64,000 nucleotides of DNA, taken from the NCBI GenBank assembly GCA_000091205.1, contig AP006494.2. One strand, 5' to 3'. Made by a program: the position numbers and the translations under genes. This stretch comes from Cyanidioschyzon merolae. Taxonomy: Eukaryota. Of the stretch, positions 10,038 through 64,000 are shown one piece after another (position 1 is the first letter of the stretch; every line of letters begins with the position of its first letter). The notes beneath the pieces were generated by a model. The model ran no database searches. It saw only the letters and a list, made by a program, of their open reading frames with translations, and had not been told where the DNA came from.

Positions 10038-10685
10038 ACCGAACCAACGTCAAGGTAGTGTACCTTTCGTACCTGCGTCAGGCGTTCCGGGCACTTGAAG
10101 CGATGCCGCCGGCGCAGGCGCAGCACCGCTTGTGTCCATTTTTGTATCCAAACACCGTTGTTCGGTACGGCAGTTGCGTACTCGCTGAAGCTACGTATGG
10201 AGTCAGGTGCACCGAACCAGACTCCCTAGTACAAGGGATTTCTATAGAAGATCAGGAAAGAGACCCCGGAACTTGTAGAGATCAGCTCAGATTCAAATGG
10301 CCTCGGAGGAAAGTTGTCGTCGACGACAGAGGTCAGAGCGCTGTGGCGACAGAGGCACTGCGGGCGCTTGACCTACAGTGGGCGCCTCCTGCGGCGCAAC
10401 CAGCGTTGGCGCTGCTGTTGCCCTCCAGATAAAGACCGGTTTTGGATTGCCATTGCGGGCGTTGGCTTGGCGCAAAGTTTATCCGACGCGGACCGAAGTC
10501 TCGTCGTCGGTTTGGGCTCTAAAATGGATGCGCAGGCGAGCCTGCTGCCGGGAGCGGTGCTGGATGGCACGCTGAAGGAGCTCGGCAGCCAAAGCGAAGC
10601 CTCGACGTAGGCCGCGCTAGCCTGCATCGTTCCAAAAGAACGGTGCCGTGGTCGACCTGCACCTGCCTCGCCTCAGCATCTACCG

Positions 10686-13367
10686 TCACTGAGACGGTGC
10701 GTCTGGCGCGAATGCCTCCATTAGGGCGCGGACGCGTTCAGCATCGACACCGACCGCACGGCGTTCCTCCACGGAGTAGTGGCGATGGAGGACAGCAACA
10801 AATTCGCTTAGCACTTCTTGTACGTTTTCCCGCAAGATCTCGGTCAGGACTCGACTTCCATGTGGTCCAAAGAGACGTTGCCAAAAATCCAGGATTTGCC
10901 GTAAAGCAACAGGTTGCGTTTCGAGGTTCGGATCGATGGGGACGCGGTCAAAACGCAGCAGAACGGTAGCCCAGATCTCTCGAACGCAATCGACCGTTGC
11001 AGTAGTGCCAGCTTCCCCCTTCAGAGCGGCAACATTGCTGGATGCCGCCACCTCAGCGAGAAAAACAAGTAGAGGCTGTAAAAGTTCTCGAAGTGCACGA
11101 AATACCACAGCTTCGTATGCAGCTCGGAGCTCGTCTCTTAAAGTTTCCTTCGAGTTGAGGTCCATACGTTTTGGAATGAGGTCTCGCACAGAGCCGAACA
11201 GATGACGAAGACTCACCTGACCTCGAATGATACGGGAAACCCCTGCGCGGAATTCGTCAAACGATAAATATCGGAGTTGTCGCTCTTGATCCACGATATC
11301 GAGTTGCTCAAAGAGCATAAGATTTTGGTGCAAAATCAGCAGCTGCTTGAGATAGAAAAGCTCCGCACTGTCACTGGTGGCGGCATGCGGATCCAGACGA
11401 GGCGAACTCAGCGGGCTGCGTTGGACACTGCCCTGTGTTTGACCAGGCGCCGAGGCTTTTCGCAAACTCGCTAGCGCTAACACGGAACTCTTGTCGGGTT
11501 CAAGGCTCTCTCTAGAAGCCGGCGGCTCTAGCAATGCAAGCCTCCTAGCTGCCGTTTGCAGATTTCGAATACAAGCTTCGATGGCCTCTCGGGCGAGACC
11601 CGCGAACACCAGGGCGTCAATGCGACCATGGAGAAGTGCCAAAACCTGAAGCGTAAGCAGTGTTGCTCGATAGACCGCCGACGACGGTGTACTAGTCACT
11701 GGCTGCGTGTTAGGGCCCTCCAGTGACAACTGCTGTGGCCCATGTCCCCGATTAGGACGTTGGAAATGAGCGTAGAGAGCCTGCAGGTCTCCGTCTGATG
11801 GCTGAAAACGGAGAATTTGATCACGAATGAATAACTGCGCTCGATAGATTGTGCGCTCACGGGTGTCCGCCAATAACGAAGTAACCGGCTCTGTAAAGCA
11901 TGACGCAACCAGATCTGAAGTCGAACGCGAAAGCTCAGTTTCCATCGCTTCTTTCTGCAGAAAATCAATGCATCGAACGAGCGCGTCAAGATCACTTTCC
12001 TGCAGCACTCGCGGCAGAATGTAGATCGAGATAAGGTCAGCGATTGATCGCAGCCACTGACGGAGCGCAGATAAGGGTTGCGCTTTTGCCCCAAGAGATA
12101 CACGAAGCAGCATATCCTGGGTAGTCTCGGATGAGGGCAGCATCAGAGCCTGAAAGAGCTGGAGCTCCATGGTACAAACTTTAAGCAGCATCGTCGTTGT
12201 CGAACGTGCTGCGAGATCCAGCTCTTCAGCGCTTGCAGCAAGTCGTGCCTGCTCTTGGGCCAGCGGAAGCACGAGTCGTCGTCGTTGCTCCACAAAAAGC
12301 ATCTCGCATTTTGCGAAGAACTGCATGGTCTCAGGAGAATCGGCGGGTGCCAGGTTACAGATGGCATCCATGAACTGGCGAGTCTGCTTGCTTAGCTGCC
12401 GGAAGCGAAGGTTGACGATTGCATCTTCGCGATCAGGAGCTTGTAGCCGTCGCTGGTCGGCAGGTAATCGGGAAAGCTCCATAGCAAGGCCTGACGTTAG
12501 GTGTCTCACCAGGACTCCAAGATGCGAACAAGTGAGCTCTCGCGCTCGCTGCAGGATTTTTTCGAGCCGGTCATGTTCCGTGGCGCTCCAAACGCTGTTG
12601 CTGCTGTTGCTGCTCCCGTGTGCTGCAGCCAGTTCCGCTGAGTGTGCGAGAGCACCGCTGTGCTGCATACGCTCCTGGCACATACCCAACGCAACGAGCA
12701 CGTCGTGAATATCGTTACCTACACCGTCCGCATCCAACGAAGAGGTTCGAAGCGAGGCCATCTCGACCGTATCCAGCTTCTGACTTAAGCGCTCCAATTC
12801 TTCCCATAACTCCAAGCGCTCACGCATGCTTTGTGCTTTTCGTTCCAGCACCGTCTTCTTTGTGTACGCGTCCTTGAGTGTAGCTCGAAACATCGAGAGA
12901 TCTTTTTGTGCTTGCGTGCAGCGAGTCTCCATTTCCTCAAGAGTGGTTAGGAAACTTTGTACTTGCTCGAGGGCGTTCCGCACTCTCTCCAGATCCACTT
13001 CTATGTCGTGCTGAATGCGTTCGAGAGCGCTGCGTCGTACGTCCTCTAGCTGTAGATCAATCACGTCGAGTTCGGTGCCGAGAGCCGATTCTTGTTCAGG
13101 CGTAAAGTCTCCGGATGTATCCGCTCGGAAAACGCTTGATTCCTGATCATCTTCTGCGACTGTTTCGAAGAAATCGGCCCTGCTGAAGAGCTCACGCGCC
13201 CTCAGGAACAGTTGCTCTTGAGTCTCGCGTAGTGCGGGGTCCCCGTCGTAGACGGCATCAAGAGACTCCCACCGCGCGAAGGTATCCTCTGCAACTTTCA
13301 TACAAGCAGCAAGCGGTGGAAAAGTTTCTCCTAACCTTGAAACGCGAAGGAACTGAAATATTGGCAA
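10686..13367 (-). CDS. Large coiled-coil protein, possibly a COG3/Sec34-like Golgi tethering complex subunit (identity uncertain)
   Basis: This is an 893-aa uninterrupted ORF. Its N-terminal coiled-coil segment ...CTQAQKDLSMFRATLKDAYTKKTVLERKAQSMRERLELWEELERLSQKLD... resembles the Sec34 domain pattern (CE.LL.EQ..L.....L.YFEELE.I..RLN). The rest is helical-repeat-like. Confidence 0.4.
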   Translation of the reverse strand: MPIFQFLRVSRLGETFPPLAACMKVAEDTFARWESLDAVYDGDPALRETQEQLFLRARELFSRADFFETVAEDDQESSVFRADTSGDFTPEQESALGTELDVIDLQLEDVRRSALERIQHDIEVDLERVRNALEQVQSFLTTLEEMETRCTQAQKDLSMFRATLKDAYTKKTVLERKAQSMRERLELWEELERLSQKLDTVEMASLRTSSLDADGVGNDIHDVLVALGMCQERMQHSGALAHSAELAAAHGSSNSSNSVWSATEHDRLEKILQRARELTCSHLGVLVRHLTSGLAMELSRLPADQRRLQAPDREDAIVNLRFRQLSKQTRQFMDAICNLAPADSPETMQFFAKCEMLFVEQRRRLVLPLAQEQARLAASAEELDLAARSTTTMLLKVCTMELQLFQALMLPSSETTQDMLLRVSLGAKAQPLSALRQWLRSIADLISIYILPRVLQESDLDALVRCIDFLQKEAMETELSRSTSDLVASCFTEPVTSLLADTRERTIYRAQLFIRDQILRFQPSDGDLQALYAHFQRPNRGHGPQQLSLEGPNTQPVTSTPSSAVYRATLLTLQVLALLHGRIDALVFAGLAREAIEACIRNLQTAARRLALLEPPASRESLEPDKSSVLALASLRKASAPGQTQGSVQRSPLSSPRLDPHAATSDSAELFYLKQLLILHQNLMLFEQLDIVDQERQLRYLSFDEFRAGVSRIIRGQVSLRHLFGSVRDLIPKRMDLNSKETLRDELRAAYEAVVFRALRELLQPLLVFLAEVAASSNVAALKGEAGTTATVDCVREIWATVLLRFDRVPIDPNLETQPVALRQILDFWQRLFGPHGSRVLTEILRENVQEVLSEFVAVLHRHYSVEERRAVGVDAERVRALMEAFAPDAPSQ

Positions 13368-15101
13368 CGAAGCACAGGCTCACCGTGAAAGAAGCACCGG
13401 GTTTCGCACGAGCGACGTGGTCCTTACTCGCGTCGGATTGAAATGCATCACTAAACTGCTCGTTCCGTTCCAGATTTGCGTTTTTTCTCCGAATTTTTTT
13501 TATAGATCTATAGCATATACACTCGAAGTGCAGCAATTGGGACTTGCGAACTTCCACGTCGATTTAGAATTCGCGGTCGTCTTTGCATGGTGGCAGCTTC
13601 GATTCTTTGCCTTTGGAATTCGGTACGTCCCAGGAATCAAGATGATTTGCGACTCCCTCAAGGAAGGATGCGTGAAATAACCGATATCATCATCAATGCA
13701 TGCGTGAACGTCTCCGCTAATCTCCTTTCTTTACGCGTAGCACGCCCAAATCCTGAATTCTAAAGCTTATGCATTTTTCTGTTTCAGGGCAAATAATGAG
13801 TGCTGCAATTCGTGCCGCTCCATGTGCAAAGAAAAACGCCCAAAGTCCTCACTTGATTACTTGTTCATAATCACATACTAAAAGTTAACTGAGCTTATTA
13901 AGTCAAAGAGTCGATACCATTCAAAAGACAAATCCTCTTCTCTTCGCGCCCATTAAAGAAACGGTATTCGGTATCAGCGTGATATCCCTCATCGGATAGG
14001 CCCCAGAGGATCCCGCCCTGTCTGTTTCCATGGAAAAAAATCATGAACTCGGTCTCCAGTCATCCCAGCGTTCGCCTTCAGTGGCGACCGCGTCACTACT
14101 TCGGAAGACGGGAGCTTAGATGGACCGAAACTTCGCGACATGATCTCCAGCCTGGATTTTCATTCCGGTACATGTTTCAGTATGGACAGCATCGCGCTCC
14201 ATGAATCCTCTGTCGAATGGGGCAGCGTGCGCCTCCACCTGCAGCAGACAAAGCAGCCGCCGGGGCCAACTTCCAGACGATGCCCGTAATCGTAGGGTAC
14301 GGCACTGGGCGCGGAAGCGGAGCAGCATATCCTGGGAAGCCTTCTGTGCCTGTCAGGGGCATGCACCGATCCATGAAGCAGGCGTTCGCATACCACAGGC
14401 CGGAGCCCTGATGAGGAGGTATGGTGGGCGTACGGGCGCACCTGATTACGCTCAAGTGTCATCGCTGCGATGGACGCACCGAGGCTATATGGAAAGAAGA
14501 TGGAAACTTCAAGAGCAGCTTGCATCGCAACTACCGTCTGTGTATGCACCGTTTCGACTCCAGTCTGAAGCGGCAAAATCGGGGCTTAACTTTGCCAAAA
14601 ACATCCTTCCGTTGCTGACAAGAGAGCTGTAGTGAAAGGAGAGATCAGCGTGTTTGAAGCCAAAGATAAAAGGAGCAGGATGCAGTCGCAGAAAAGTCCT
14701 GCAACGGCTGGTGTTGATGACAATTGGACGAGGCCCAAACTCTAACATGTACATCTGAGTTAGAGAACTTCCATTCCATTCTGACACGATTCTATGAACG
14801 GTACGCGCTCTGTGGTATTTCGGTTTGCTCAGCGCTGTGGACCTCCGGAAATACCCACGCATGGGGTCTAAATTGGCAAACATTGTATTTCTAGGATTCA
14901 TGCACCGTCCGGACCCGTGTCCGACGACTGCTGCGGAGGCCGGCAAAATGTCGCTCTCTACTGGAAGCGGTTTCCCCCAGATCGACGGACACACGATGAA
15001 CATGACGATGCCAGGTTACAGTGAATGCGCGTGCGTTTCCGAAGCGGCTAAGAAATGTGCTCGAAAAGCGCGCATTCCGAGATGTTCAGTCATCTATACA
15101 T

Positions 15102-16010
15102 TCAGAGATCAAATACTTCAAAAGGCGGAGACTCCCAAACCTCAAATGGTCGTACATACGGTGCTGCAACAAGCAGCCGATTCATATCGAGTGCCATGAG
15201 GGTCTTATTCACTGCTTTTTCGGAAGCAGCTACGTTCAGAAGCAGATGCGCCAAAGTGCTTCGATGTATGGTTCCAAAACCGACCTTGCTTTCACTGACA
15301 ATAGCACGGCTGTCGGCGTCACCATGCTCGAGCGCGCCGGGGCGCACAATCGTATACGGCAGACCACTCTCACGGACATACTGTTCGACTCGAGATAGTT
15401 CCAGGAGAAGCGGCCTTAGTACATCAAATGCCTGCGACGGTATAGCGTCTTCAGAGTCACCGCAACCGAGTAAAGTCACGAGAACCAGTCGCGTTTTCGA
15501 TCGGGGCTCGTTCGTCTCCCCTTGCGCTCGTAGAAGGTCGATCACGACCTGGTTTTCGCGAAAGATGCTTCGTCTCCTCAGTCCTAGATCGTCATCGTTT
15601 ATCGAAAAGAGCGTTCTCGGGTTGTAGTGTTCCAGATCTGTTGCAGCGCACTCCAGAAAATCTACACCTGGACCCGGAAAGTGCAAACCAGCTCCAGCGC
15701 TGTGGCTCTCTATCGGGTCACGCGCACCGATAACACCGATAGCATCTGGCCGAAGAGATGGATCAGGTGTACGGGTCAATGCACCGACGAGCTCTTGACC
15801 AAGCGGCGAATTCGCGCCTGTGACGCAAACTCGTCCGAGTTTGCTGCGCGACTGTTGCATAGACAAACGTTGCTGGCGAGCCCGTAGCTCTCTTCGAATG
15901 CCTAGCGAATCTCGCTCTTCCAAAGCCCTAGAGATACACGGCAAAAACGCATAATGCTCTGTTCTCAACATAGGTAACGAACAAGCACAGGAACGGGAGT
16001 TGCACTTCAA
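15102..16010 (-). CDS. NAD(P)-binding Rossmann-fold protein (NAD(P)H-binding domain / atypical SDR, NmrA-like). The true start may be the internal Met at about 15860.
   Basis: The sequence VCVTGANSPLGQELVGAL is a GxxGxxG-like dinucleotide-binding motif, and LPYTIVRPGALEHGD is typical of the NAD(P)H-binding family. Confidence 0.5.
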   Translation of the reverse strand: MKCNSRSCACSLPMLRTEHYAFLPCISRALEERDSLGIRRELRARQQRLSMQQSRSKLGRVCVTGANSPLGQELVGALTRTPDPSLRPDAIGVIGARDPIESHSAGAGLHFPGPGVDFLECAATDLEHYNPRTLFSINDDDLGLRRRSIFRENQVVIDLLRAQGETNEPRSKTRLVLVTLLGCGDSEDAIPSQAFDVLRPLLLELSRVEQYVRESGLPYTIVRPGALEHGDADSRAIVSESKVGFGTIHRSTLAHLLLNVAASEKAVNKTLMALDMNRLLVAAPYVRPFEVWESPPFEVFDL

Positions 16011-16349
16011 TGAGCTCCGCAGCGCTTGCGCGTGAGATTCTCACGCGTAGCGACTTCCAGGCGGTGCGCGCTGAGAAAGACCCGCTGATCGGCACCGGCA
16101 ATGCAGACACAGAAGGCAGCGTTCTCGCTGCGAGACTCGTTCGAACAGCTTCAACGTGTTGGACCAGGTTTTCCTTATGAACAGCTTTTGTCCAGGTTCT
16201 GGTGCAAACCATGGATAGCTATGATACGTAATCTGCGGGCCGTGACATATGGGAATCATCGAAAGTACGGTTCGTAGTAAACGATAGCAAGAATCAGCCG
16301 GTGTGATATGCGAGGGACACCCTCGGCACAAAATTACGGCCTTCGACCA

Positions 16350-16885
16350 CAAAATTGTTCCACCTTCAGGTGAGTTTCATCAAGTGCGTTTTCGCGGTGT
16401 ATAGCAGACGCGTTCGAGGTGGGTTCACTCTAAGAAATAAAAAATCCATAGGAGAGATATGGGCGAAGAAGTCGGGGATCTGCTAGGGTCGGCATCGCCG
16501 GCTGCAGGAAAACACGAAGAAATCCTCTTTTCGCTGACCATGGGGCGAAAAAGAACAGCAACAAGAGCGACGATACTCGAGGGAAGGTGTTTGCCCAACG
16601 AGATGATGACGAGATTGTAGTGGCATATATGGCACGAGTATTAGGAATTTTTGCACCTGTGAATTCAGTCAGCGTCAATGCACGCATGGAGTTTGTGACC
16701 CGACACTTCAACGATGCTATTGGTATCAGACGATGTATGGTGCTAAAGACGAGACCCTAGGACCTGCCACGATCCATCTTTGTGGGGCAGCCTCTCAGGC
16801 TCGTAGTGTGTGAGCAGAAACTGAAACGGATTGCAGGCGGTCTGTCATAAAAAGGCTGGGTGGCGTCTGTGAGTGGGTATGTTTA
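16350..16885 (+). repeat. 5'-truncated paralogous fragment (copy B) of the Fanzor/TnpB-like element family. It retains a decayed RuvC-III region and the conserved terminal about 80 bp.
   Basis: The segment 16681-16760 translates MEFVTRHFNDAIGIRRCMVLKTRP*, which matches copy A's MQFVDLDFNAGIDIRGYEVLARRP. The downstream sequence ...gaaactgaaacggattgcaggcggtctgtcataaaaaggctgggtggcgtctgtgag... aligns with 6600-6690. Upstream about 350 bp align with copy C. Confidence 0.5.
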
Positions 16886-16992
16886 TTCACTTTGTGTTCG
16901 TGGAAATGTTTCCGTTTCACTGACTGTCTTGGACCAGACATCATCCTGGGTGCTCGCATTGCGCTTCGAAAGGCCATATGACGTGATGGGGT

Positions 16993-18183
16993 CACGGCAC
17001 CGCGGAGCACTGGCACGTCCACTTGACGACCGCCACTTCGGACGGTGCGCCCTGACTCGGCCTCCACAGAGAGGCACCCCGGTGCTGCCGCATCGCCCTG
17101 CATCCACAACGGCGGCATGCAGATCGCCCCAGCCAGCGTCGCTGTGTGTGGATCGTCGCGCATGCTCGGATCGCGCGATCCGCTCGCCTTCAATGCGACA
17201 GGTGCTCCAACGCTTTGCCACGTGTCCGTTGCTGAATGCGTGCAGTCGCGATCGCCGTCACGCACGCACGCATGCACACACGCGGGCGTATGGCGGTATT
17301 GAGGCGTTTGCATTGGCGGGCGCTCTTTCTGGCACTGCAGCCGGGTCCAGCGACAGGCACGTGGCTCAGGGAGCAAGTAGTAACGCCTCACCAGCATCGA
17401 GCTTGCGACGTGCAGGAGTGTACGCGGTGCATCGATGGAGACACGCCTACGGACACGTGTGCGACATTGGACTCTGGCAGTGAGCTGGCCTAGTCAGAAT
17501 GCACTGACGGAGAGATGCAAATGCACACCTATAAAGCATGGATTTCGGCGAGCAACCAGGAGCATTTACAGTACACCACCCGAAAGATCCATGCAAGCAA
17601 ACATTTCGCAGATACTCTGGGCGGCAACCAGGAAAACTGGACGTACACACATCCAGATCATACACACAGACCTGCGTCCCGCCCAAGGCCCTAGCTCGAG
17701 ACCCCCGCCGAGTCGCCACCGCTGAGCCAGCGCGTGTGCCACCGCCGCCCCGGATCGTCCAGACGCTCGTAGCCGTGCGAGCCGAAGCAATCCCGCTGGG
17801 CCTGAACCAGCTGGCTTGAGCGCAGCACCGCCTGTCGATACGTGTCGTAGTACGAAAGGCTCGCGGTCAGCGCCGGCGCCGGCACACCCAGCGATGCCGC
17901 CAGCCCGACAACACGCCTCCAGCTCTCGTGGCGACGTCCAATCTCCGCAGCCAGGTCAGCGTCCAGCAGCAGATTCGGCAGGCTGGGGTCTCGTCGAAAA
18001 GCGCCCTCGATCCGCTCAAGCAGCTGTGCCCGAATAATGCAGCCGCCCTTCCAGATGCGCGCAAGCTCCCCGAGATCCAGCGACCAGCCCTGCTCGCAGC
18101 TCGCTCGATGCAGCAGACTGAGACCCTGCGCGTAGCTACAGAGCTTGCTGCAGAAGAGTGCGTCCTCAATAGCAGCGATCAAC
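16993..18183. repeat. Segmental duplication copy A, at least 1.2 kb and about 98% identical to 62810..64000. It covers the 3' part of the 6PGDH gene plus about 700 bp downstream. The true extent is unknown because copy B runs off the window.
   Basis: Base-by-base comparison of 16993-18183 against 62810-64000 shows only scattered mismatches. Matching ORFs have near-identical translations (16860..17483 vs 62758..63324; 17435..17725 vs 63252..63542). The duplicated block contains a (CACG/CATG)n-like microsatellite. Confidence 0.85.
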
Positions 18184-19398
18184 GCTCGCTCCGCCGATGC
18201 ATCCGAACGCGACGTCGACGCCGACGCTCGTACAGAGCCAGACGCTAGGGCGGCGACACGCTCGGGAGCTGTGTCCGGTCCAGTTTCAGCTACAGCGCCA
18301 GCGGCTCCGGGTGAGGCACCGGCGGCCGCCAACTCGGAGGCGTGCCCCGTACCCGAGAGCCGCTCGGGTCCGCGGAGCACCCGCGACGCACGCTCGCGCT
18401 CGTCCTTCCGCGCTGAGAGGAAGCGCCCGTCGAGCGCGGCAGCGATGGTCGGCACCGCCACGCCCCGCCGCAGTGCCTCCGTCATCGTCCACAGGCCAGT
18501 GCCCTTGCTCTCACTCCGGTCGAGGATTTGGTCTACGAGCGCTGGCGCCGACGCTGCCGACGAAGACGTGTCAGGCACGCGTAGAATGCGCGCGGTAATC
18601 TCCACGAGGAAGCTTTGCAGGGCGCCCGCGTTCCACGAGGCAAATACTTCCGCAGCCGCCATCGCATCCAAGCCAACGGCACCCCGAAGCAGGTCGTATG
18701 CCTCGCCGATCAGCTGCATATCGCCGTACTCGATCCCGTTGTGCACCATCTTCACATAGTTCCCCGAGCCGCCCGGCCCAATGTAGGTAACGCACGGCCC
18801 AGAGCCGGGTACCTGCGCCGCAACCTGCTCCAGCAGCGGCGCAAGCTGCTGGTACGCCTCCCGTGAACCGCCCGGCATCAGGGAAGGCCCGTAGCGCGCA
18901 CCCTCCTCGCCACCGCTTACAGCCCATGCCTACGTACAGGAGGCCGCGTGCCGCGACAGACGCAGCACGTCGCTCCGTATTCTCGTACCACTCGTTGCCG
19001 CCGTCCACGATGATGTCGCCCGGCTCCAGAACCTCAGCCAGCGCCTCGACGGTTGCGTCGACTGCGCTCCCCGCCTTCACCAGCAGGAATACCCGCCGCG
19101 GACGCTTCAGCGAAAGCGCAAACGACCGCAGGTCCGCAAAGCCGGTAACGCTCCCGCTGGCTGTCGTGTCATCTGCCGCGAGCTCCCGCTGCGCCCGCTC
19201 AACAGTCTCCGCCGTCCGCGCATACGTTCGATTGTACACAGAGACTCGCCAGCCGTGCGACGCTAGGTTCAGTGCAAAGTTCTGACCCATGACCGCAAGG
19301 CCAATGACACCCGCGTCCGATATTGCGCGACCTGCAGGATGTGACGACGCGCTTTCCCGGACAGCACTCGACGGAGACGAGCCCTCCGTCGCAGACAT
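17691..19398 (-). pseudogene. 6-phosphogluconate dehydrogenase (decarboxylating), disrupted by a single-base insertion (+1 frameshift) near 18912. It is either a pseudogene or an assembly error, and it also carries a roughly 45-aa low-complexity insertion.
   Basis: The N-terminal part (from the Met at 19398) reads GVIGLAVMGQNFALNLASHGWRVSVYNRT...YVGMG. It continues in another frame as VSGGEEGARYGPSLMPGG...NGIEYGDMQLIGEAY...SKGTGLWT...FCSKLCSYAQG...DCFGSHGYERLD. The junction ggcatgggcTgtaagcggtggcgag shows one extra T relative to the expected GMGVSGGEEG. Confidence 0.7.
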
Positions 19399-19959
19399 GA
19401 CGGCAGCACCACATGCTTGTGCGCGGCGGCCTCGGAGCAGGCACCAGCGAGCGCTTCGGACCAAGCTCAGGCTCCATGTCGGGTACGTACGTCTGGGTGT
19501 CCAGGAGTGCGCACGCGGAGGCGCCCAGCGTCCGAAGCGCACCGCAGCGACAGGTGCAGCGGCCCAGCACAGCGCACCGCCACTGGGACTCCGGCGAGTG
19601 CCCGCTGTCGTCGCCATCCTTGAGACGATCCACAGGTGGTTTGCGTGACCGAGGGCGGCCGGCCTGTTCACCGGGTGCGCCTCCTCGGTCTGCCGCGCTC
19701 TAGACGGGGCAGCGCGCAGCGACTGGCCGTCTGGTGCTGCTTCCGGGACTCCTCAGCTGCCGATCCTGTGCCCCGGCGCGAGCACTCGGCAACTTGACGT
19801 CTGGTGCTCGCTCAAGTCTCTCACGGTCACTACGACAACACGCACGCTCAAAAGCTGAGCACAGCGAAAAACAAAACCGATCCGCGATGCACGGGGGTGC
19901 TGCAGATCGATGCAGTCCGCGTCACGAGTTCTCGCAGTAGCACGAATACCACCGACAAT

Positions 19960-19962
<3 letters not shown>

Positions 19963-20000
<38 letters not shown>
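19963..20000. repeat. (CAG)13 microsatellite
   Basis: A perfect run of cagcagcag... is visible. Confidence 0.9.
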
Positions 20001-20248
20001 GCAACGCAACGTACTCGGTCCACAAACAGCCGCAGTCAGCGACGAATGAGCGGCTCGCTCAGTAGCTCGCAACTGCAGCTCCAGCACGAGTACGCAACGG
20101 ATCGCAGACAGCCGCCACGAGGCCGCAGCGCTACGCACAGCGCGCGACGCACCGTCAAGCGCTATCCTGCGCTGGCGGCCGTCGCCGCAGCAACGCAGGC
20201 GGATCGAATGCGCACGGGTATATATATGAATATGGAACCTCAATCATC

Positions 20249-20369
20249 ACTTGCGTTCAAACCATAGCTGGAAACACCGCGTCCCATCTCGAATCGCGAA
20301 GTTAAGCAGCATTGGGCTCTCTGAGTACTGTGATGAGGGATCGCACGGGAAACGGGAGTGACGCTAGTT
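20249..20369 (+). rRNA. 5S ribosomal RNA gene (solitary copy)
   Basis: The sequence ACCATAGCTGGAAACACCGCGTCCCATCTCGAATCGCGAAGTTAAGCAGCATTGGGCTCTCTGAGTACTGTGATGAGGGATCGCACGGGAAACGGGAGTGACGCTAGT aligns along its whole length with eukaryotic 5S consensus blocks (CACCG..TCCCATC..GAA..CGAAGTTAAGC..TTGGGC..AGTACT..GATGGG..GGGAA). It is about 121 nt long. Helix I pairs ACTTGCGT with ACGCTAGT with one T/T mismatch. Confidence 0.8.
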
Positions 20370-20372
20370 CGC

Positions 20373-20376
20373 TTTT
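20373..20376 (+). terminator. Pol III T4 terminator immediately downstream of the 5S gene
   Basis: A TTTT run begins 3 nt after the predicted 5S 3' end. Confidence 0.5.
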
Positions 20377-22610
20377 GCCACCACGTCGCGCTGACCTGTT
20401 CTAAAGCGCGCAGCAGCAGACGCGAGCCGGGTAGTCTGGCGGGGAAGCACTGTGAGGCCGGCTTGCTCCGGAATACACTTGCAACCGGTGGTCCAGATCG
20501 ACGACGATAACGAGTGGGTAACTGCGGAGGCCTGGTTGCATAGAGCGATCTTGCAGCGCTACGGACCGCAACACCTGCCGATATTCTGGAGGAGGTGCGA
20601 TCGCCCCCGCACGACGAACCCCGTAGCACCCAGAGGGAGTACGCACCCGCGCTACACCATGAATGCTAAAAAGGGCGGCAGGGCAGGGGCTGTCGCCCCG
20701 AACGCGTATTGCAGACAAACTAGCGCGTCACGTTCCGGTGCGTCACATGCACGCAAACTCGGGTGCCGTACGTATTCATGGTGCTCGACACGCATTCTTC
20801 CCTATGGTAGTGTCAGATTGGAATGAAACACTGAATTGGTCGTTCGGTTTCTGCCTTTCCACTTTTGGATTCGATATATAGCTTCGACATTCCAAGCGCA
20901 GGAATGCTTGCGTACTGATTTACACGGCTTTCCTGGAGTCTGGGTCGTCTTTTCAAAACGACTTGTTCGATCCCTCTCTCTATTGTTCGTTACGGAAGCT
21001 ATATCAAGATGCTTCGCCACGCTACGGACAAAGGGCTCCTAAAATAATCGTTTTCATTATCCATTCCGTGCGTCCATGGCTCCGCTGCTCTCCATGCTTT
21101 ACTTGTAGCAAGCCCAAATCCCGAACTCTTTTACGTTGCGATCTTTCCGTATCTCGTCAACTTGTGCGCGTAGCAATTCTTACCGTTGGATCGATGAGAA
21201 AGGGCCATAAAAGTAATACCCCGACACATTGTTCACGAAATCATGTCGAAACCTCACGGAACCTCACACGTCAATAGTTGATTTCGTTCGGGCGAGGAAT
21301 CGTCCTTTCTTTCCGGTCATCGATGAAATTGTATACAACAACCGTGTGATACCTCTCAAGGGATACGCTTCCGGTGACTTCTGTTTCTTATTTTTGCATG
21401 GAAATGGGTATTGGCCTCGGGCTCTTGTCCTTGCAACGATCGCTTCCAACGGCGAGACGTCTCTGCTTTGCGCGGAAGGAGTGTCGACGAATCGAAATTT
21501 CCCGGTCTCCTATCCGGCCTAGATCCTCCATCTGGTACTTGTTTCATCATGAACAGAATCGAGTTCCACAAACCCTCTGTAGAATCGAATAGCGTGCGTT
21601 TGGTCGTACAGCGAATATAACAATCGTCTTGGAGGATCGCTCAGAAGAAGCCGATGATCTTCGGGTACGAGACCTGGCCTGGAAACAGAGAATCGCATGG
21701 TGCAGAGCCTCTGGTGCCCGTCGAAGGCATCTACCGAGCGGTAAAGCAAGCGTTCACCCGCCACAGGGCAGCGTCCTGAGGCGAAGGATCGGTAGACAGA
21801 TGGGAACACTCGACAACAGCCACGAATCACTCTTCCACAGGACACATCGAGTCTGGATTAAAAGAGCGTGTAAACGCCAAGTGATCCGTAGATCGCACCT
21901 TTTGCGTGCACATGAAATGCCTTGACAAAGACCTTAAACAGCGAAAACGGGACCCCAAAGCTGCCATCAACAACCCTCGGCCGCTGACAACAGAGCTGGC
22001 GGAAGAGGAGAGACCAGCGTATTAAAAGCCGAGGCCAAGAGGGAGGAAAAGGAAGCAGCTGCATGAAAAGCTCGCAATGGCTGGCATTGATGAAAGCGGG
22101 AAAGGACCCAAACCTGCCAGTGTACACCCGAGTTAGGTTTTTGAACCCGTTCTATTGTGGTCTGAGATGGGTGTATAAACGGACCCAGAGAGTGCGAAAC
22201 CTCCACTTTAAGATTTCATACAATTCATTAACATGTCCCTGGGGAATTAGGGCTTTTACAAAAAATGACTCGGCCTGTGCAGCGCAGTCTGCAGAGTATA
22301 AAGTAACATCCTCCGCTCTTTCAGAATCGTAGTTGACCAGGCTAGCTCGCAATGAGCAACGTTTTTGCTACAACCTACTCCATAACGTGAGCAAGAACGC
22401 GCACTTCCTGGTTGGCTCCATCAATTCCCGGGAAACATCGCTATAAGGTGCGGGTACCTGTTGGCGAAAGCAAAATCTCTTGCCCTTGCACCCCAAGCAG
22501 CTCTGAAGCTTCAGGATCGCACTAGAGTTGGCGGATCTCGTCTGCGCGCAAGCCGCGGCCGAAAAGATTTGCCCAACACCGTAACACAGAGCTAAACTAT
22601 CCAGCAAACA

Positions 22611-46946: not shown

Positions 46947-47482
46947 TTGTGCTGCAGAAAGGAGGGCATGCATACAAGTTTATGCTTTGCGCTGAGTCGA
47001 TGCAAGGTTGCTGGTTAGGCGCGTCGTGCCAGCATCCAGATACATTTGTTATCGAGAGCAGATGCTCTGGCGCAAGCCATGCACTGAAACGAAATCGTTG
47101 CCAAACCGTGATCTCCCGTGTGCGTCACCTGTTGTGGTGACACCGTCGGAAATGAGTGCAATCGCGTGAAACTCGTTTCTCTTTCAAGAACGGAATCGCG
47201 TGCCGTTTACGCAGCGCCCACGCGCCTCGCATGCAGCAGTTTCGTCGTCTCCAAAGCGATGGTGAGTCATGCATCACGCTTCACGCGGAATGCAACACAG
47301 CCTGAGCATAACTTGTACCCCGCTGTGGTGTGTCGTGCGCGAAACTGCCTTCACTCACTGACGTCGCGACGAGCAGTCCGTGGTGTGCGTACACGGATCA
47401 TGAGCAAGCCCCAGCTCAGAGTAAAATGGAACAGGTCCACTGAGCTAACTCGTGTATAGACGCTCAAGTTTGTGTCTATTTT

Positions 47483-48112
47483 CACTGCCATGAACACCAG
47501 CATCTGGAAACTATGTCCGCGACTGCTTCCTGTTCCTGTATTGCGCATCACCGGCTTTGACGACGCCGGTCGCGCCAGTCCGCCCGCCTCTATTCTCAAC
47601 AGTCGAAGGATGCTGAAAACAGCGTCCGCGTTCCGATTTCGCCGTTCACCGCTGCTTCCGGCACATCGCATACACACACAAATACGGAGATCTACGCTAG
47701 CCGTGTCATTTCCATCTTGGTTGCATACAGCCTCGGTACGCGCTTCACAGCGCCGACACCGCGCTGTGGTTACCTGCACTCATTCGTTCTCTGCACGTCG
47801 ACCTGCGTCGAAGACCACCCTGTGGCGCGTGAACGCTCGCTTCATCGCTCGGCACACGCCGCTCACGAGTGTAGAACGCTCAGCTCGATACACACCTCGA
47901 TAGCAGCGCCCAGAGCTGCACACACTACAAGTACAGGCCTCCTCTGGGCGATCTGCTACGTGCGTACTCTATCCGCTACAGGTGCAAGCGCACGGTGTTC
48001 GATTCGATAGACAATTCGTGTACTGCGATATTGTCCATGATCAAAGAGGTGATCGGAAATCCAGTCCAGACTGGAGAACAAGTCGACACGTTTCGATCGG
48101 TCTATAGTCCTT
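47483..48112. repeat. About 630-bp dispersed repeat, copy 1 (direct repeat of 59466..60086, about 97% identical)
   Basis: Both copies run from cactgccatgaacaccagcatctggaaactatgtccgcgac... to ...caagtcgacacgt(t/c)t(c/t)gatcggtctatagtcctt. Their internal ORFs are near-identical (47351..47779 vs 59363..59752). Flanks diverge at both ends. I see no obvious terminal inverted repeat or target-site duplication. Confidence 0.85.
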
Positions 48113-58282: not shown

Positions 58283-59465
58283 TTACAAAGAGGCACAACC
58301 TGTCCGGTTTTAGCCAGGGTCTAGACCCCCCCAGCGCGAGTTCCTATTGTGCTCGAAGTGCGCTCCACAGCAGATATGCCACAAGCAGGTACGCTTTCTG
58401 AATACGGTCGCTGCGATGCCCTGCCGCGCGCTGCCCGCATGGATCACCTTTAGGAAACATCCGGATTCGCAGGTAGAGGCCTTGGGAAGCGTACCAGAAT
58501 ATGTAGCTTACTTTCCGATCTCGCTTTCATTTCATTTTGAATGTAGAATTGCAAGTACAGATTGCGGCCTTGATCTTTCCTAGTCTGCTGACATGACGTG
58601 GCCAAGGACGCATTAGAGAGAAGCTGGCAGAGGAAAATACAGAAAAGGCCTGGCGATCCAGGCTCGTGCAATATACTGATCTCTTGGTCGCACCGTACCG
58701 ACTCCACGAGCGCCGTACTCATCGAAGAAAGCGCTGCAGTCCCCAATGGGTACATTTCGGGTTGGTACAGGCCAGATGTTTCAGTGCTTCCGCAATCTTT
58801 CCACCCGCTGCATGCAATTGATATGGCAGAGACGCAGCTTCCGCTTCGATGTCGTGCGATTCCAGCATCCCGGAATAGACCTATACGAATGCAACGTTTA
58901 CGCATCAGACAAGGTTCCGTCAATGTATATTGAATACTTGCAACGACCAGAAATGCGTTCAACCTGCCATTGCACTGAGAAAGATCTGTGGAAACACAGC
59001 ATCCCCATTTTTTGACTGGATGCGGCAGCGGTCGTGCCTACAAGTTGGCGGCAGAAATCTCCTGAAACGTCTCCATGTAGCCAATGATGCGCCCATGGCT
59101 GGTTCTCCACGAACATCCGCAGTTCCCTGCACTCTGCTCATCATAGACTGCCATTCGGCCGAGTGACCCTTACAGAACCCATCTCGAAGCACCGCAGCTG
59201 CTCATGTAAAATAGGGAGTCTCATAGGCTGCCCGCTGTTTTACTGCATTTCCAAGACGACTCCCTAAACTGTGTAGCTCGTCGCCGTATCACTCCTGGTG
59301 CAGCATTGTCGCCAACGCGTGCACATTTTCTGGCACGAACTGCGTTGGCGTCGCTCCAGCGCTTACTGGAGATTCCGTTGCACCCATGTCCGACTAGAAA
59401 GAGACCGTTCCGAGCAGTATTCTCTGATGTAGACTCTAGACTTCAATTTTCTACTCACTGCCATG

Positions 59466-60086
59466 AACACCAGCATCTGGAAACTATGTCCGCGACTGCT
59501 TCCTGTTCCTGTATTGCGCATCACCGGCTTTGACGACGCCGGTCGCGCCAGTCCGCCCGCCTCTATTCTCAACAGTCGAAGGATGCTGAAAACAGCGTCC
59601 GCGCTCCGATTTCGCCGTTCACCGCTGCTTCCGGCACATCGCATACACACACAAATACGGAGATCTACGCTAGCCGTGTCATTTCCAGCTTGGTTGCATA
59701 CAGCCTCGGTACGCGCTTCACAGCGCCGACACCGCGCTGTGGTTCCCTGCACTCATTCGTTCTCTGCACGTCGACCTGCGTCGAAGACCACCCTGTGGCG
59801 CGTGAACGCTCGCTTCGTCGCTCGGCACACGCCGTTCACGAGTGTAGAATGCTCAGCTCGATACACACCTCGATATCAGCGCCCAGAGCTGCACACACTA
59901 CAAGTACAGGCCTCCTCTGGGCGATCTGCTACGTGCGTACTCTATCCGCTACAGGTGCAAGCGCACGGTGTTCGATTCGATAGACAATTCGTGTACTGCG
60001 ATATTGTCCATGATCAAAGAGGTGATCGGAAATCCAGTCCAGACTGGAGAACAAGTCGACACGTCTTGATCGGTCTATAGTCCTTT
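59466..60086. repeat. About 630-bp dispersed repeat, copy 2
   Basis: See the evidence for 47483..48112. Confidence 0.85.
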
Positions 60087-60466
60087 TCTCCCCTACCTCG
60101 CCTCTGACTCTTCTTCTTCTTCATTTGCTCCTCTTCGCTCGATGCTCGACGAGAGGAGGAATCTCTCGTCTTATTCCTGCCGCCGGCGATGGAGGCCCTC
60201 CAGGATGCTTGAGTTTTAGATCCATGCCTTTCACTTGGGTTTTCCATTTCTTCAAACGAACGCACTTCGAATGCATCTGCAATGAACCGCGAAAAGCCTG
60301 TCACACCGGTGTCGGGTACGCGCGAGATTCACCGCATCGCTAACCGAATCCGGCAAGCGAGCGCATCTTCATTTCGAGCACCGCTGAGGCCAGGCCTTGT
60401 AGAGCTCGAGTTCTGGGGCTGCGAACGCGTCGCTGGTGGGAAAGTCGCCACCAAGCAGGGCTGGTT

Positions 60467-62677
60467 GTGGCTATGACCTTCTGTAGACATTACGTCTACT
60501 TTATAGCGCCGTTTCATACGCGGCGTGAAACGCGTGCGTTCCTCAGGCCGCACCTCGTGAAAAAAGCGAGCCAGCAGCTGTGTCCGCAGCAGCAGCTACC
60601 GCAAAGTACCTACAAAAGCCGTGCGTTTCAGGCGTCGGGGACAACGCCCGGCCCACAGGTCCCGAGTTTACCGGAAAAAGGTGAAACTGGGGCAAGTTCG
60701 GATCGCTGGCAGCGACTGCGGCCGCAAATACTTGCGCTGCCTCGTTCGTGCGGTGTCTACTTTTTTCGGGACCGCAAAGGTCGTCTCCTGTACGTTGGCA
60801 AGTCGCTATGCATTCAGGAGCGTGTGGCCTCATATTTCCGAACCTCTTCCGTCGAACAACGAGGTAGACAAGTAATCGCTGCTCTAGACAGCGTTGATCG
60901 AGTGGAATACTTCGTGACTGGGAACGAAGTGGAGGCGCTCGCCGTCGAGTCCAACTTCATCCGTGAGCACCAGCCCCCCTACAATACACTACGCAAAGAT
61001 GACAAACGTTTTCCTTTTGTGCGCGTCACTTGGAGCGAAATGTATCCGCGCTTGGTGGTGACTCGCCAGAGGCCCCGCGTCAATCAGAACACTCGCGGTC
61101 GAGATCGCGTATATGGGCCTTTCGTCGATTCAAAGCTCCTCAACCATGTGCTTCGCTTTATTCAGCGCACTTTTCCGATGCGACAGCGGGCGCAGCCTCT
61201 TTTTCGGGATCGACCTTGTCTGAATTATGACATTGGTGTATGTCCGGGAGTCTGCCAGAAACAGGTAGACACAACGACATATCGAGAGGCTGTTCGCAGG
61301 GCCGAGCTCTGTTTGCAAGGCCGCGTAACACAGGTCTTGAGCGAATTACAAGCAGATATGCAGCACGCAGTTAAGAAAGAGGATTACGAACGCGCTGCAA
61401 GTCTACGCGACGCGATGCGGGCGCTGCAGCGGATAGCCGTCGAGTCAACGGTCGGCGTCGTTTCGAACCTGACACAACGGGTTCTGCTCATGAATGCCGA
61501 TTTTTCTGCCGATGTCGCCGCAGCGGCCATCACGCAAGATGGAAAGATTGTATCGATTGAACTTATCCAAATGCGGGATGGTATGGTGATGAATCGATTA
61601 CACTTCAGCCTTCGCGTTTCACCTCTGGTACGGGACACCGAAATGACCCACGCGCAGGGTTCGCGGGAGCAGTTGGATCACATCGCAGCTGCCGTATTAC
61701 AGCAAACGCTGATTGAGCATTATGCAAACCTTACGGATGCTAATGAGAATCCGGATGGGATTCTGGTTTATCCTGCTTTACAGGATCATTCGATCTTGGA
61801 AAAGTTATTTCAGGAGCGGTGGCGCTCCCGTCGAGTGCGTGTCGAAACACCTCGAACAGGATTACGGGCAGAGCTCGTACAACTGGCGAAAGAGAACGCG
61901 GAGGCGCATCTAAAGGATGCCTACAACCAGATCACGAACGCGGTGGGTCCGCTCGAAGATCTGGCCATGCGCCTTGGCCTTGCGCAACGTCCATTTCGAA
62001 TCGAATGCTTCGATATCAGTCATCTCAGTGGGACGTGCGTAGTCGCTTCGCAGTCCGTCTTTTTAGATGGTGTACCTGCACCGCATGCCTATCGTCGCTA
62101 TCGCCTGAATCAAAACGATTCTGACCCTGCGAAGGGCGCGAACGATCTCCTGAATATGCAACAGGTTCTGCGACGTCGTTTTCGACGTGCCGCAGAATCG
62201 GCGCCTGTCGACTTGCCGGATCTCGTGCTGATCGATGGTGGCATTGAGCAACTGAAAGCCGCATGCAGCGCCCTCGAAGCATGCGGACTCAGTCCACGGA
62301 CAGGAGCGCCTAATCTCATCGCCCTGGCGAAGCGAGATGAAGAGGTCTTCACCCTGCATTCAACGAGCCCTCTACAGCATTTTCGGGATGGATCCGTGGA
62401 CTCGATGGCGTTGCGCCTGCTTCGCCATATTCGTGACGAGGCGCACAACTTTGCCCTGCAATACCACCGCCAACTGCGAAACAGGGGCACTATGGCTTCC
62501 GTCCTGGAACGCATTCCTGGTTTAGGACCTGTGCGTATTCAAATCTTACTGAATCATTTTGGTTCGTTCGAGGGAATTTTCGGAGCTGGTTACCAGCAAT
62601 TGGCAGCGATTCCTCGGATCGGAGAGAAGTTGGCTCAGCGCATTCATGAGTATCTGCATGAAACGACTGGAAACTAG
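60467..62677 (+). CDS. uvrC: Full-length bacterial-type excinuclease ABC subunit C (UvrC), with a transit-peptide-like N-terminal extension of about 95 aa
   Basis: A GIY-YIG domain (LPRSCGVYFFRDRKGRLLYVGKSLCIQERVASYF, VEYFVTGNEVEALAVESNFIREHQPPYNTLRKDDKRFPFV) is present. It is followed by a UVR motif (EDYERAASLRDAMRALQRI). Then comes the RNase H-like endonuclease region (IECFDISHLSGTCVVASQSVF...PDLVLIDGGIEQL...LAKRDEEVF...IRDEAHNFALQYHRQLR). The protein ends with a C-terminal (HhH)2 (RIPGLGPVRIQILLNHFGSFEGIFGAGYQQLAAIPRIGEKLAQRI). The ORF is uninterrupted and its GC content matches neighbouring genes. Confidence 0.85.
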   Translation: MAMTFCRHYVYFIAPFHTRRETRAFLRPHLVKKASQQLCPQQQLPQSTYKSRAFQASGTTPGPQVPSLPEKGETGASSDRWQRLRPQILALPRSCGVYFFRDRKGRLLYVGKSLCIQERVASYFRTSSVEQRGRQVIAALDSVDRVEYFVTGNEVEALAVESNFIREHQPPYNTLRKDDKRFPFVRVTWSEMYPRLVVTRQRPRVNQNTRGRDRVYGPFVDSKLLNHVLRFIQRTFPMRQRAQPLFRDRPCLNYDIGVCPGVCQKQVDTTTYREAVRRAELCLQGRVTQVLSELQADMQHAVKKEDYERAASLRDAMRALQRIAVESTVGVVSNLTQRVLLMNADFSADVAAAAITQDGKIVSIELIQMRDGMVMNRLHFSLRVSPLVRDTEMTHAQGSREQLDHIAAAVLQQTLIEHYANLTDANENPDGILVYPALQDHSILEKLFQERWRSRRVRVETPRTGLRAELVQLAKENAEAHLKDAYNQITNAVGPLEDLAMRLGLAQRPFRIECFDISHLSGTCVVASQSVFLDGVPAPHAYRRYRLNQNDSDPAKGANDLLNMQQVLRRRFRRAAESAPVDLPDLVLIDGGIEQLKAACSALEACGLSPRTGAPNLIALAKRDEEVFTLHSTSPLQHFRDGSVDSMALRLLRHIRDEAHNFALQYHRQLRNRGTMASVLERIPGLGPVRIQILLNHFGSFEGIFGAGYQQLAAIPRIGEKLAQRIHEYLHETTGN

Positions 62678-62809
62678 GAACGCATGCTGCGTGAATTCGA
62701 GCTCAAGTGTCTTAAATACTTTCTTCAGATATTTGAAGAAATGCATCGCCACGAACATTGTGTTCGCCAATCGATCTGCCACCAGCGATTTCCGAATCCC
62801 TGACCGATC

Positions 62810-64000
62810 CACGGCACCGCGGAGCGCTGGCACGTCCACTCGACGACAGCCACTTCGGACGGTGCGCCCTGACTCGGCCTCCACAGAGAGGCACCCCGGT
62901 GCTGCCGCATCGCCCTGCATCCACAACGGCGGCATGCAGATCGCCCCAGCCAGCGTCGCTGTGTGTGGATCGTCGCGCATGCTCGGATCGCGCGATCCGC
63001 TCGCCTTCAATGCGACAGGTGCTCCAACGCTTTGCCACGTGTCCGTTGCTGAATGCGTGCAGTCGCTATCGCCGTCACGCACGCACGCATGCACGCATGC
63101 GGACGTATGGCGGTATTGAGGCGTGTGCATTGGCGGGCGCTCTTTCTGGCACTGCAGCCGGGTCCAGCGACAGGCACGTGGCTCAGGGAGCAAGTAGTAA
63201 CGCCTCACCAGCATCGAGCTTGCGACGTGCAGGAGTGTACGCGGTGCATCGATGGAGACACGCCTACGGACACGTGTGCGACATTGGACTCTGGCAGTGG
63301 GCTGGCCTAGTCAGAATGCACTGACGGAGAGATGCAAATGCACACCTATAAAGCATGGATTTCGGCGAGCAACCAGGAGCATTTACAGTACACCACCCGA
63401 AAGATCCATGCAAGCAAACATTTCGCAGATACTCTGGGCGGCAACCAGGAAAACTGGACGTACACACATCCAGATCATACACACAGACCTGCGTCCCGCC
63501 CAAGGCCCTAGCTCGAGACCTCCGCCGAGTCGCCACCGCTGAGCCAGCGCGTGTGCCACCGCCGCCCCGGATCGTCCAGACGCTCGTAGCCGTGCGAGCC
63601 GAAGCAATCCCGCTGGGCCTGAACCAGCTGGCTTGAGCGCAGCACCGCCTGTCGATACGTGTCGTAGTACGAAAGGCTCGCGGTCAGCGCCGGCGCCGGC
63701 ACACCCAGCGATGCCGCCAGCCCGACAACACGCCTCCAGCTCTCGTGGCGACGTCCAATCTCCGCAGCCAGGTCAGCGTCCAGCAGCAGATTCGGCAGGC
63801 TGGGGTCTCGTCGAAAAGCGCCCTCGATCCGCTCAAGCAGCTGTGCCCGAATAATGCAGCCGCCCTTCCAGATGCGCGCAAGCTCCCCGAGATCCAGCGA
63901 CCAGCCCTGCTCGCCGCTCGCTCGCTGCAGCAGACTGAGACCCTGCGCGTAGCTACAGAGCTTGCTGCAGAAGAGTGCGTCCTCAATAGCAGCGATCAAC
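62810..64000. repeat. Segmental duplication copy B, truncated by the window end. It is paralogous to 16993..18183.
   Basis: See the evidence for copy A. Confidence 0.85.
63508..64000 (-). CDS. Second copy of 6-phosphogluconate dehydrogenase. Only the 3' (C-terminal) portion is visible; the gene continues beyond the window end.
   Basis: The translation ...ALFCSKLCSYAQGLSLLQRASGEQGWSLDLGELARIWKGGCIIRAQLLERIEGAFRRDPSLPNLLLD...DCFGSHGYERLDDPGRRWHTRW differs from the 17691..18184 copy at only 3 residues. Confidence 0.75.
   Translation of the reverse strand, partial: LIAAIEDALFCSKLCSYAQGLSLLQRASGEQGWSLDLGELARIWKGGCIIRAQLLERIEGAFRRDPSLPNLLLDADLAAEIGRRHESWRRVVGLAASLGVPAPALTASLSYYDTYRQAVLRSSQLVQAQRDCFGSHGYERLDDPGRRWHTRWLSGGDSAEVSS

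Follow-up and report, generated by a model that had tools for sequence, protein, structure and literature searches.

A complete nuclear UvrC gene of the red alga Cyanidioschyzon merolae, most likely inherited from the plastid ancestor, with a probable plastid transit peptide

Nucleotide excision repair by UvrABC-type proteins is a bacterial process, which raises the question of why a eukaryotic nuclear genome should carry an intact gene for the excinuclease subunit UvrC, from which lineage this gene came and in which compartment its product is likely to act. The locus in question lies in a stretch of 64,000 nucleotides of Cyanidioschyzon merolae (contig AP006494.2 of assembly GCA_000091205.1), which was analysed as a whole and is referred to below as the window. 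An earlier inspection of the letters of this window, here called the original prediction, had pointed out a bacterial-type UvrC with complete architecture and an extension resembling a targeting peptide. The explanation that fits our analysis best, to which we assign a probability of roughly 0.6, is that of a plastid-imported UvrC, derived from a cyanobacterium, which takes part in bacterial-type excision repair.

An open reading frame (ORF) is indeed present on the plus strand at positions 60467..62677, where it had been predicted; it opens at a GTG and in this form comprises 736 aa. The start has to be corrected, since the annotated start corresponds to the first ATG at 60473, which yields a protein of 734 aa. 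The translation of the resulting coding sequence (60473..62677, plus strand, 734 aa and stop codon) is letter for letter identical to BAM80681.1/XP_005536717.1, "excinuclease ABC subunit C" of C. merolae 10D. The locus tag, CML058C, was taken from published expression tables, in which it stands between CML057C (aarF-domain kinase) and CML059C (6-phosphogluconate dehydrogenase, 6PGD), and the positions of these two genes agree with the ABC1 and 6PGD genes that flank the ORF in the window. The replicon of strain 10D that carries CML058C is presumably chromosome 12. The gene itself is already known, as it has been named for years in GenBank, UniProt and a number of data tables from the literature. 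It is not unique to C. merolae either, and its orthologs in other red algae carry the same annotation.

The encoded protein has all the parts of a bacterial UvrC, as had been claimed. Pfam searches located GIY-YIG at aa 95-173, UVR at aa 289-322, UvrC_RNaseH at aa 353-483, UvrC_RNaseH_dom at aa 502-663 and HHH_5 at aa 680-731, and the NCBIfam equivalog model TIGR00194 (uvrC) gave 456.9 bits with a cutoff of 285.45. The GIY-YIG 3'-incision nuclease domain (60749..60985, like all further features of the protein on the plus strand; PF01541, 27.7 bits, cutoff 22.6) has retained the residues Y96, Y107, K110, R117, E159 and N171 in an alignment to 1ycz/1yd6, which we take to be the counterparts of Y19, Y29, K32, R39, E76 and N88 of the T. 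maritima protein in the numbering of 1YCZ, and the model of this domain matches 1yd6 with a Foldseek template modelling (TM) score of 0.87. Further downstream, in the UvrC_M region, the alignments and PF27096 (precomputed on homologs) indicate a cysteine cluster (C249, C257 and C261; 61217..61255), the three residues of which are invariant in an alignment of 47 sequences as well as in an alignment of 15 eukaryote-type sequences. E. coli UvrC has a four-cysteine cluster, which binds a [4Fe-4S] centre; a fourth conserved cysteine upstream of the cluster was not seen in the red-algal or cyanobacterial sequences aligned, in which three cysteines are kept. The UVR domain, a helical hairpin that binds UvrB (61331..61432; PF02151, 36.1 bits, cutoff 21.5), has kept its core E-x-A-A-x-x-R-D, with E306, A308, R312 and D313 conserved.

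The C-terminal half consists of a first, non-catalytic RNase H-like domain (61523..61915; PF22920, 52.3 bits), the catalytic RNase H-like 5'-incision endonuclease (61970..62455; PF08459, 128.5 bits) and a (HhH)2 DNA-binding domain (62504..62659; HHH_5 with 41.9 bits, HHH_2 with 28.5 bits), which matches 1kft. Within the endonuclease, the DISH, DGG and DEAH motifs are conserved in the alignment to 2nrt, including the triad D514, D588 and H658, and its model matches 2nrr with a Foldseek TM score of 0.84. The catalytic residues of both the GIY-YIG and the Asp-Asp-His site are invariant across the 47 homologs and across the 15 eukaryote-type homologs. An AlphaFold model of the protein, which was built on the homolog alignment, reached a mean predicted local distance difference test (pLDDT) value of 80.6, and its best matches in the PDB were the C-terminal half and the GIY-YIG domain of UvrC. 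Taken together, CML058C is predicted to be catalytically competent. Two insertions are absent from cyanobacterial UvrC, one of 4 aa after residue 200 and one of approximately 10-13 aa after the UVR domain. The latter, at aa 327-339 (61451-61489), is specific to red algae and predicted to be disordered (pLDDT <50).

The ORF is a true nuclear gene for a full-length UvrC. Its neighbours in the window are eukaryotic; MINDY, PPR, Fcf1 and a ubiquitin/NEDD8-like gene, which had been listed by the original prediction, were all confirmed, and COG3, the small chain of ribonucleotide reductase and others belong to the same neighbourhood. The host-like composition that had been noted was also borne out, with a GC content of 0.542 and a GC content at third codon positions (GC3) of 0.548, both in the range of the neighbouring genes, and with a correlation of codon frequencies with these genes of 0.76, the neighbours' own range being 0.52-0.86. 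In a scan for bacterial signals, promoter-like sites were not found and terminator-like sites were not in excess. The gene order MINDY-CPSase-ABC1-UvrC (CPSase, carbamoyl-phosphate synthase) recurs on a 672-kb contig of Cyanidiococcus yangmingshanensis, and CPSase-ABC1-UvrC on a related metagenome contig. In Cyanidium caldarium the gene set is the same as that of the window, in the order SBF-COG3-NAD_binding_10-UvrC-6PGD-MINDY-Fcf1-PPR-Ub-HEM4. In addition, an independently assembled contig of a hot-spring metagenome (L006) is collinear with positions 59150-62940 at 99.4% identity and crosses both junctions of the UvrC gene, that is, the repeat upstream and the duplication downstream of it. 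Comparisons between species gave saturated synonymous divergence (dS), a nonsynonymous divergence (dN) of the mature UvrC of 0.15-0.28 and a ratio of the two (omega) of about 0.05; the gene is under purifying selection.

These data also dispose of the idea that the gene stems from contamination, from a chimeric contig or from a recent insertion that decays between the repeats. The repeats themselves, which approach the ORF to within 382 bp upstream and 133 bp downstream, could be taken as a sign of such an event. This explanation is already refuted, because the neighbourhood is kept in two other cyanidiophycean genomes and because L006 is collinear with the window across both junctions. Furthermore, the codon usage is that of the host, the ORF is intact, selected and transcribed, the nearest bacterial proteins are just 36-41% identical, and the repeats mark a rearrangement of the neighbouring genes rather than the borders of UvrC.

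From which lineage the gene was acquired can be judged from its relatives. In a word-indexed search, the nearest proteins outside red algae, with the identities just given, were all cyanobacterial. In a HMMER scan for UvrC relatives among 1.84 billion cluster representatives, longer proteins with N-terminal extensions ranked ahead of the bacterial matches. Among the matches listed, 14 join C. merolae in a eukaryote-type clade, all of them extended N-terminally by 32-138 aa and including by name Cyanidium caldarium, Porphyridium purpureum and an MMETSP transcript; the UvrC of Pyropia vietnamensis was added to this clade by a profile search. The phylogeny, which had been named as a means to distinguish an endosymbiont origin from a later transfer, was calculated by neighbour-joining with 200 bootstraps (an earlier version comprised 166 taxa). 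The 16 eukaryote-type UvrC proteins form one clade (bootstrap 98), and the sampled cyanobacteria, including the Thermostichales, form another (bootstrap 100). The two clades are joined with a bootstrap of 100, and the Vampirovibrionales and other phyla lie outside this group. Since a clade of eukaryotes only adjoins the cyanobacteria, an endosymbiont origin is favoured, and UvrC most likely came from the plastid ancestor via endosymbiotic gene transfer. The clade includes Cyanidiophyceae, Porphyridiophyceae and Bangiophyceae, i.e. at least three red-algal classes, which suggests that the gene was acquired before the red-algal radiation; in the simplest reading of the tree, there would have been one ancient uptake from a cyanobacterium, prior to the diversification of red algae.

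Some observations on individual proteins of the tree may be added. A protein from a metagenome-assembled genome labelled 'Oscillatoriaceae cyanobacterium' (P0335/P0332) lies outside the cyanobacterial clade, which otherwise has full support; this may be due to a binning error. One member of the eukaryote-type clade (P0201) is encoded among compact eukaryotic genes for Cmc1, a DRG-like GTPase and a protein kinase, and another (P0155) begins with a hydrophobic leader, which could possibly be the signal peptide of a complex plastid; members of the clade come from L002 (a Logan SRR23272274 contig of 109 kb), L004 and L009. For the clade member P0140, a green-algal origin had been suspected on account of its Ala-rich leader and was rejected, as the protein is near-identical to the Pyropia protein in the tree.

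The compartment in which UvrC is likely to act is suggested by its N-terminus. The GVY motif is preceded by 93 residues, and approximately 72 of these extend beyond the bacterial (cyanobacterial) N-terminus. Thus, of the S/T/R-rich extension of about 95 aa described in the original prediction, the presequence-like character stands, and the true extra length is shorter. The presequence (aa 1-72; 60473..60688, plus strand), as delimited by alignments, model, composition and dN, has pLDDT values <50 and no predicted secondary structure in the AlphaFold model. The first 75 residues contain 13% R+K, 4% D+E and 17% S+T, and the net charge of the extension is +7. With a dN of 0.85-1.06, compared to 0.15-0.28 for the mature part, the presequence evolves 4-6 times faster than the remainder of the protein. 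The only part of it that is common to the three closest orthologs is the motif F-[IL]-[AV]-P at aa 10-13, which reads FIAP in C. merolae and FLVP and FLAP in the two closest orthologs. The C. merolae protein has Phe at aa 3 as well as at aa 10, and 10 of the 15 clade members examined for this feature have an F within their first 10 residues. A similar stretch, FLFVVP, is found near the N-terminus of the adjacent CPSase. An N-terminal Phe is needed for plastid import in glaucophytes and, from sequence similarity, probably in red algae (PMC2222254). The extension has the traits of red-lineage transit peptides, being disordered, basic, rich in hydroxylated and poor in acidic residues, absent from bacterial homologs and provided with an N-terminal Phe. 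A presequence that is disordered, basic, poor in acidic residues and fast-evolving and that carries a Phe motif favours import into the plastid; judged by sequence and model, we regard it as a probable plastid transit peptide.

With regard to potential partners, UvrA and UvrB are absent from the window, as had been stated before: no domain of either protein was found among its 25 ORFs of ≥200 aa, 21 of which were searched against Pfam, the other four being out-of-frame overlaps of scanned genes. Outside the window, CMG133C (BAM79644.1) bears the annotation 'excinuclease ABC subunit B' in three supplements of published studies, among them that of a nickel-stress study, so that C. merolae, by annotation, also has a gene for UvrB. 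The proposal to look for both partners elsewhere in the genome was hence successful for UvrB, and subunit A did not appear in the portion of the published tables searched, approximately chromosomes A to M.

The presence of a transcript, which had likewise been proposed as a check, is documented by a published microarray (PMC6606799 Data Set S1) on a culture synchronised by 12 h light and 12 h dark, with signals for CML058C over 0-24 h of 2084, 732, 9605, 15406, 16257, 10752 and 7741. The mRNA thus undergoes a 22-fold swing and peaks at 12-16 h, which coincides with the time when most cells are in S phase and with the expression of plastid FtsZ. The orthologs of Cyanidiococcus and Cyanidium are also expressed, according to RNA-seq data (PMC13353863 supplement). 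CML058C is therefore transcribed, with a strong diurnal/S-phase peak.

From these data we infer import into the plastid, partnership with UvrB (and with UvrA, if present) and excision repair of organelle DNA. The UvrC precursor, which starts with a disordered presequence of about 72 residues bearing the N-terminal Phe motif, would be synthesised in the cytosol and taken up by an organelle, most likely the plastid, after which the presequence would be cleaved off. The UVR domain of the mature protein could then dock on a pre-incision complex of UvrB, presumably CMG133C, and DNA, after which the GIY-YIG domain would incise the DNA on the 3' side of the lesion and the RNase H-like Asp-Asp-His domain on its 5' side, with the (HhH)2 domain holding the DNA. 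That the UVR domain and the two nuclease sites are strictly kept in every eukaryote-type homolog speaks for a canonical role. A more specific version, which we put forward only tentatively and consider somewhat less probable than its converse, is that the red-algal plastid keeps a working excision repair of the cyanobacterial type, composed of UvrB and UvrC and possibly lacking UvrA, which is timed to the period of S phase and organelle division instead of peak light. If true, a eukaryotic organelle would for the first time provide a clear case of nucleotide excision repair of the bacterial kind.

Several points weigh against plastid excision repair by a UvrC of endosymbiotic origin. The tree includes a limited set of early-branching cyanobacteria, with Gloeobacter and Gloeomargarita left out, and endosymbiotic transfer and a very early horizontal transfer are inseparable in it. 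In the published tables that span approximately chromosomes A to M, 'excinuclease ABC subunit A' does not occur, only subunits B and C. The array signal of UvrB is 62-116, which is near background, versus 16,257 for UvrC, an odd relation for obligate partners; RNA-seq values for CMG133C are also low (13-33; PMC13353863). The peak of CML058C falls into S phase, and it misses the hours of strongest light, the timing most simply expected of a repair of photodamage. Finally, a search of the accessible literature found no functional, localisation or biochemical study of CML058C, and main texts that pair 'excinuclease' with Cyanidioschyzon amounted to one unrelated paper.

With these points in mind, three other explanations have to be considered. 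One alternative leaves the function as it is and replaces the endosymbiotic transfer by a horizontal transfer from a cyanobacterium to an early red alga. It would agree with the finding that all clade members known by name are red algae and that homologs from green plants or glaucophytes could not be identified by name, and also with the share of about 1% of genes derived from horizontal transfer in Cyanidiophyceae that is given in PMC6629376; CML058C is not mentioned in the lists of such genes in the supplements of Cho 2023. However, the eukaryote clade branches as sister to the whole set of sampled cyanobacteria instead of lying within a derived group, it extends over three red-algal classes, so that any such transfer would have to precede their radiation, several of its further members may not be red algae, and differential loss in other Archaeplastida accounts equally well for the pattern. 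We therefore consider this alternative unlikely. An import of the same intact UvrC into the mitochondrion, or into both organelles, with repair of mitochondrial DNA, appears rather unlikely as well. Many DNA-maintenance proteins of algal and plant organelles are dual-targeted, and the extension has a basic character and few acidic residues, as mitochondrial presequences do. Yet the prediction shows no amphipathic helix within aa 1-72, the ancestry of the protein is cyanobacterial and not alpha-proteobacterial, and F3, F10 and the F[IL][AV]P shared by the orthologs fit the plastid signal of the red lineage (PMC2222254).

The third explanation departs from a canonical role. Given the gap between UvrB and UvrC expression, the S-phase timing and a UvrA that was not seen, a modified or UvrA-independent mode of action is conceivable, and UvrC could have been repurposed as a structure-specific nuclease that, without canonical damage recognition by UvrA and UvrB, has as its substrates, in the period of S phase and organelle division, intermediates of organelle DNA replication or recombination. 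Both the diurnal swing with its peak in S phase and in the plastid FtsZ period and the approximately 100-fold lower UvrB mRNA would be in line with this, as would the lack of subunit A in the tables mentioned. However, the difference in mRNA is based on array probes whose signals cannot be compared quantitatively, the UvrB gene has been retained, and the UVR domain and both nuclease sites are strictly conserved in 15 of 15 eukaryote-type homologs, as is expected for canonical dual incision. A repurposed UvrC is accordingly doubtful in our view, and we retain the plastid-imported excision repair nuclease as the preferred explanation.

The surroundings of the gene were also characterised. The repeats that bracket UvrC were found as the original prediction had placed them. 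Upstream, a dispersed repeat of 631 bp (59455..60085, plus strand) ends 382 bp before the ORF, lies outside the gene and is 98.6% identical to a second copy at 47482-48112; it is also present on L006. The two copies flank the CPSase-ABC1 pair, and a 205-aa ORF without Pfam match (59463-60080) is located inside the repeat. Downstream, a segmental duplication begins 133 bp after the UvrC stop codon (62810..64000, no strand assigned) and contains the 6PGD gene (CML059C, minus strand), the domain of which was confirmed; it is 99.0% identical over 1191 bp to 16993-18183, and the second copy extends beyond this range. The 6PGD copies (16993-19671 and 62810-64000) form a pair of direct repeats with 99.0% identity over no less than 1191 bp. 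The GC content around the copy at 16993-19671 is about 65%, and this copy reads as two ORFs that overlap (17691-18878 and 18571-19671), which could point to a frameshift or to a deviating gene structure.

In Cyanidium, UvrC stands between NAD_binding_10 and 6PGD, followed by the block from MINDY to HEM4 (window 8694-46946 versus 4077-22166 of the Cyanidium contig L005). In C. merolae, this block is inverted relative to Cyanidium, UvrC-6PGD is found on its far side, a second copy of 6PGD remains at the old position, and the repeat boundaries correspond to the breakpoints. The comparison with Cyanidium thus suggests that the repeats around UvrC mark a local rearrangement and not an insertion of UvrC. 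The adjacency of UvrC and 6PGD, which is kept in Cyanidium, looks ancestral.

Whether nucleotide excision repair operates in organelles, plastids as well as mitochondria, is an unsettled issue, on which a complete UvrC in red algae, at least in C. merolae together with an annotated UvrB, has a bearing. CML058C is not a discovery; its value is that of a known gene that has apparently never been followed up, in an organism open to genetic work. Homologous recombination can be used to modify C. merolae, its cultures can be synchronised, and each cell contains a single plastid and a single mitochondrion.

Compared to known systems, CML058C corresponds to bacterial and cyanobacterial UvrC in the succession of the GIY-YIG, Cys-rich, UVR, two RNase H-like and (HhH)2 parts and in both catalytic sites, the cyanobacterial proteins being 36-41% identical to it. 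It differs from bacterial UvrC by being encoded in a eukaryotic nucleus, by its presequence of about 72 aa, by lineage-specific insertions and by the strong day/night rhythm of its transcription. In a survey of the GIY-YIG superfamily from 2006, UvrC was described as limited to bacteria and some archaea (PMC1564403). The closest counterparts are the nuclear UvrC proteins of other red algae, i.e. those of Cyanidiococcus (F1559_003661; 64% identity), Cyanidium (KAK4534853.1; 45%), Porphyridium (KAA8491244.1) and Pyropia (MMPV_009853; 33-41% for the last two), which share with CML058C the clade with bootstrap 98, N-terminal extensions and invariant catalytic residues and, in the Cyanidiophyceae, neighbouring genes; the presequences are unalignable beyond the short Phe motif. 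The eukaryotic repair nucleases SLX1, XPG and XPF-ERCC1 are likewise structure-specific, and SLX1 has the GIY-YIG fold (PMC1564403), but none of these enzymes combines UVR, RNase H-like and (HhH)2 domains in this arrangement, their site of action is the nucleus, and they do not share ancestry with CML058C. In plants, plastid excision repair is treated as an open question, and the sole hint cited for it in land plants is the 'UvrB/C motif' protein AT2G03390 (PMC4824065). Like CML058C, AT2G03390 is nuclear-encoded and has a UVR motif, and it is itself plastid-targeted (PMC4824065); however, it combines this motif with a YccV-like domain and has no nuclease domains, whereas the red-algal protein is a complete UvrC.

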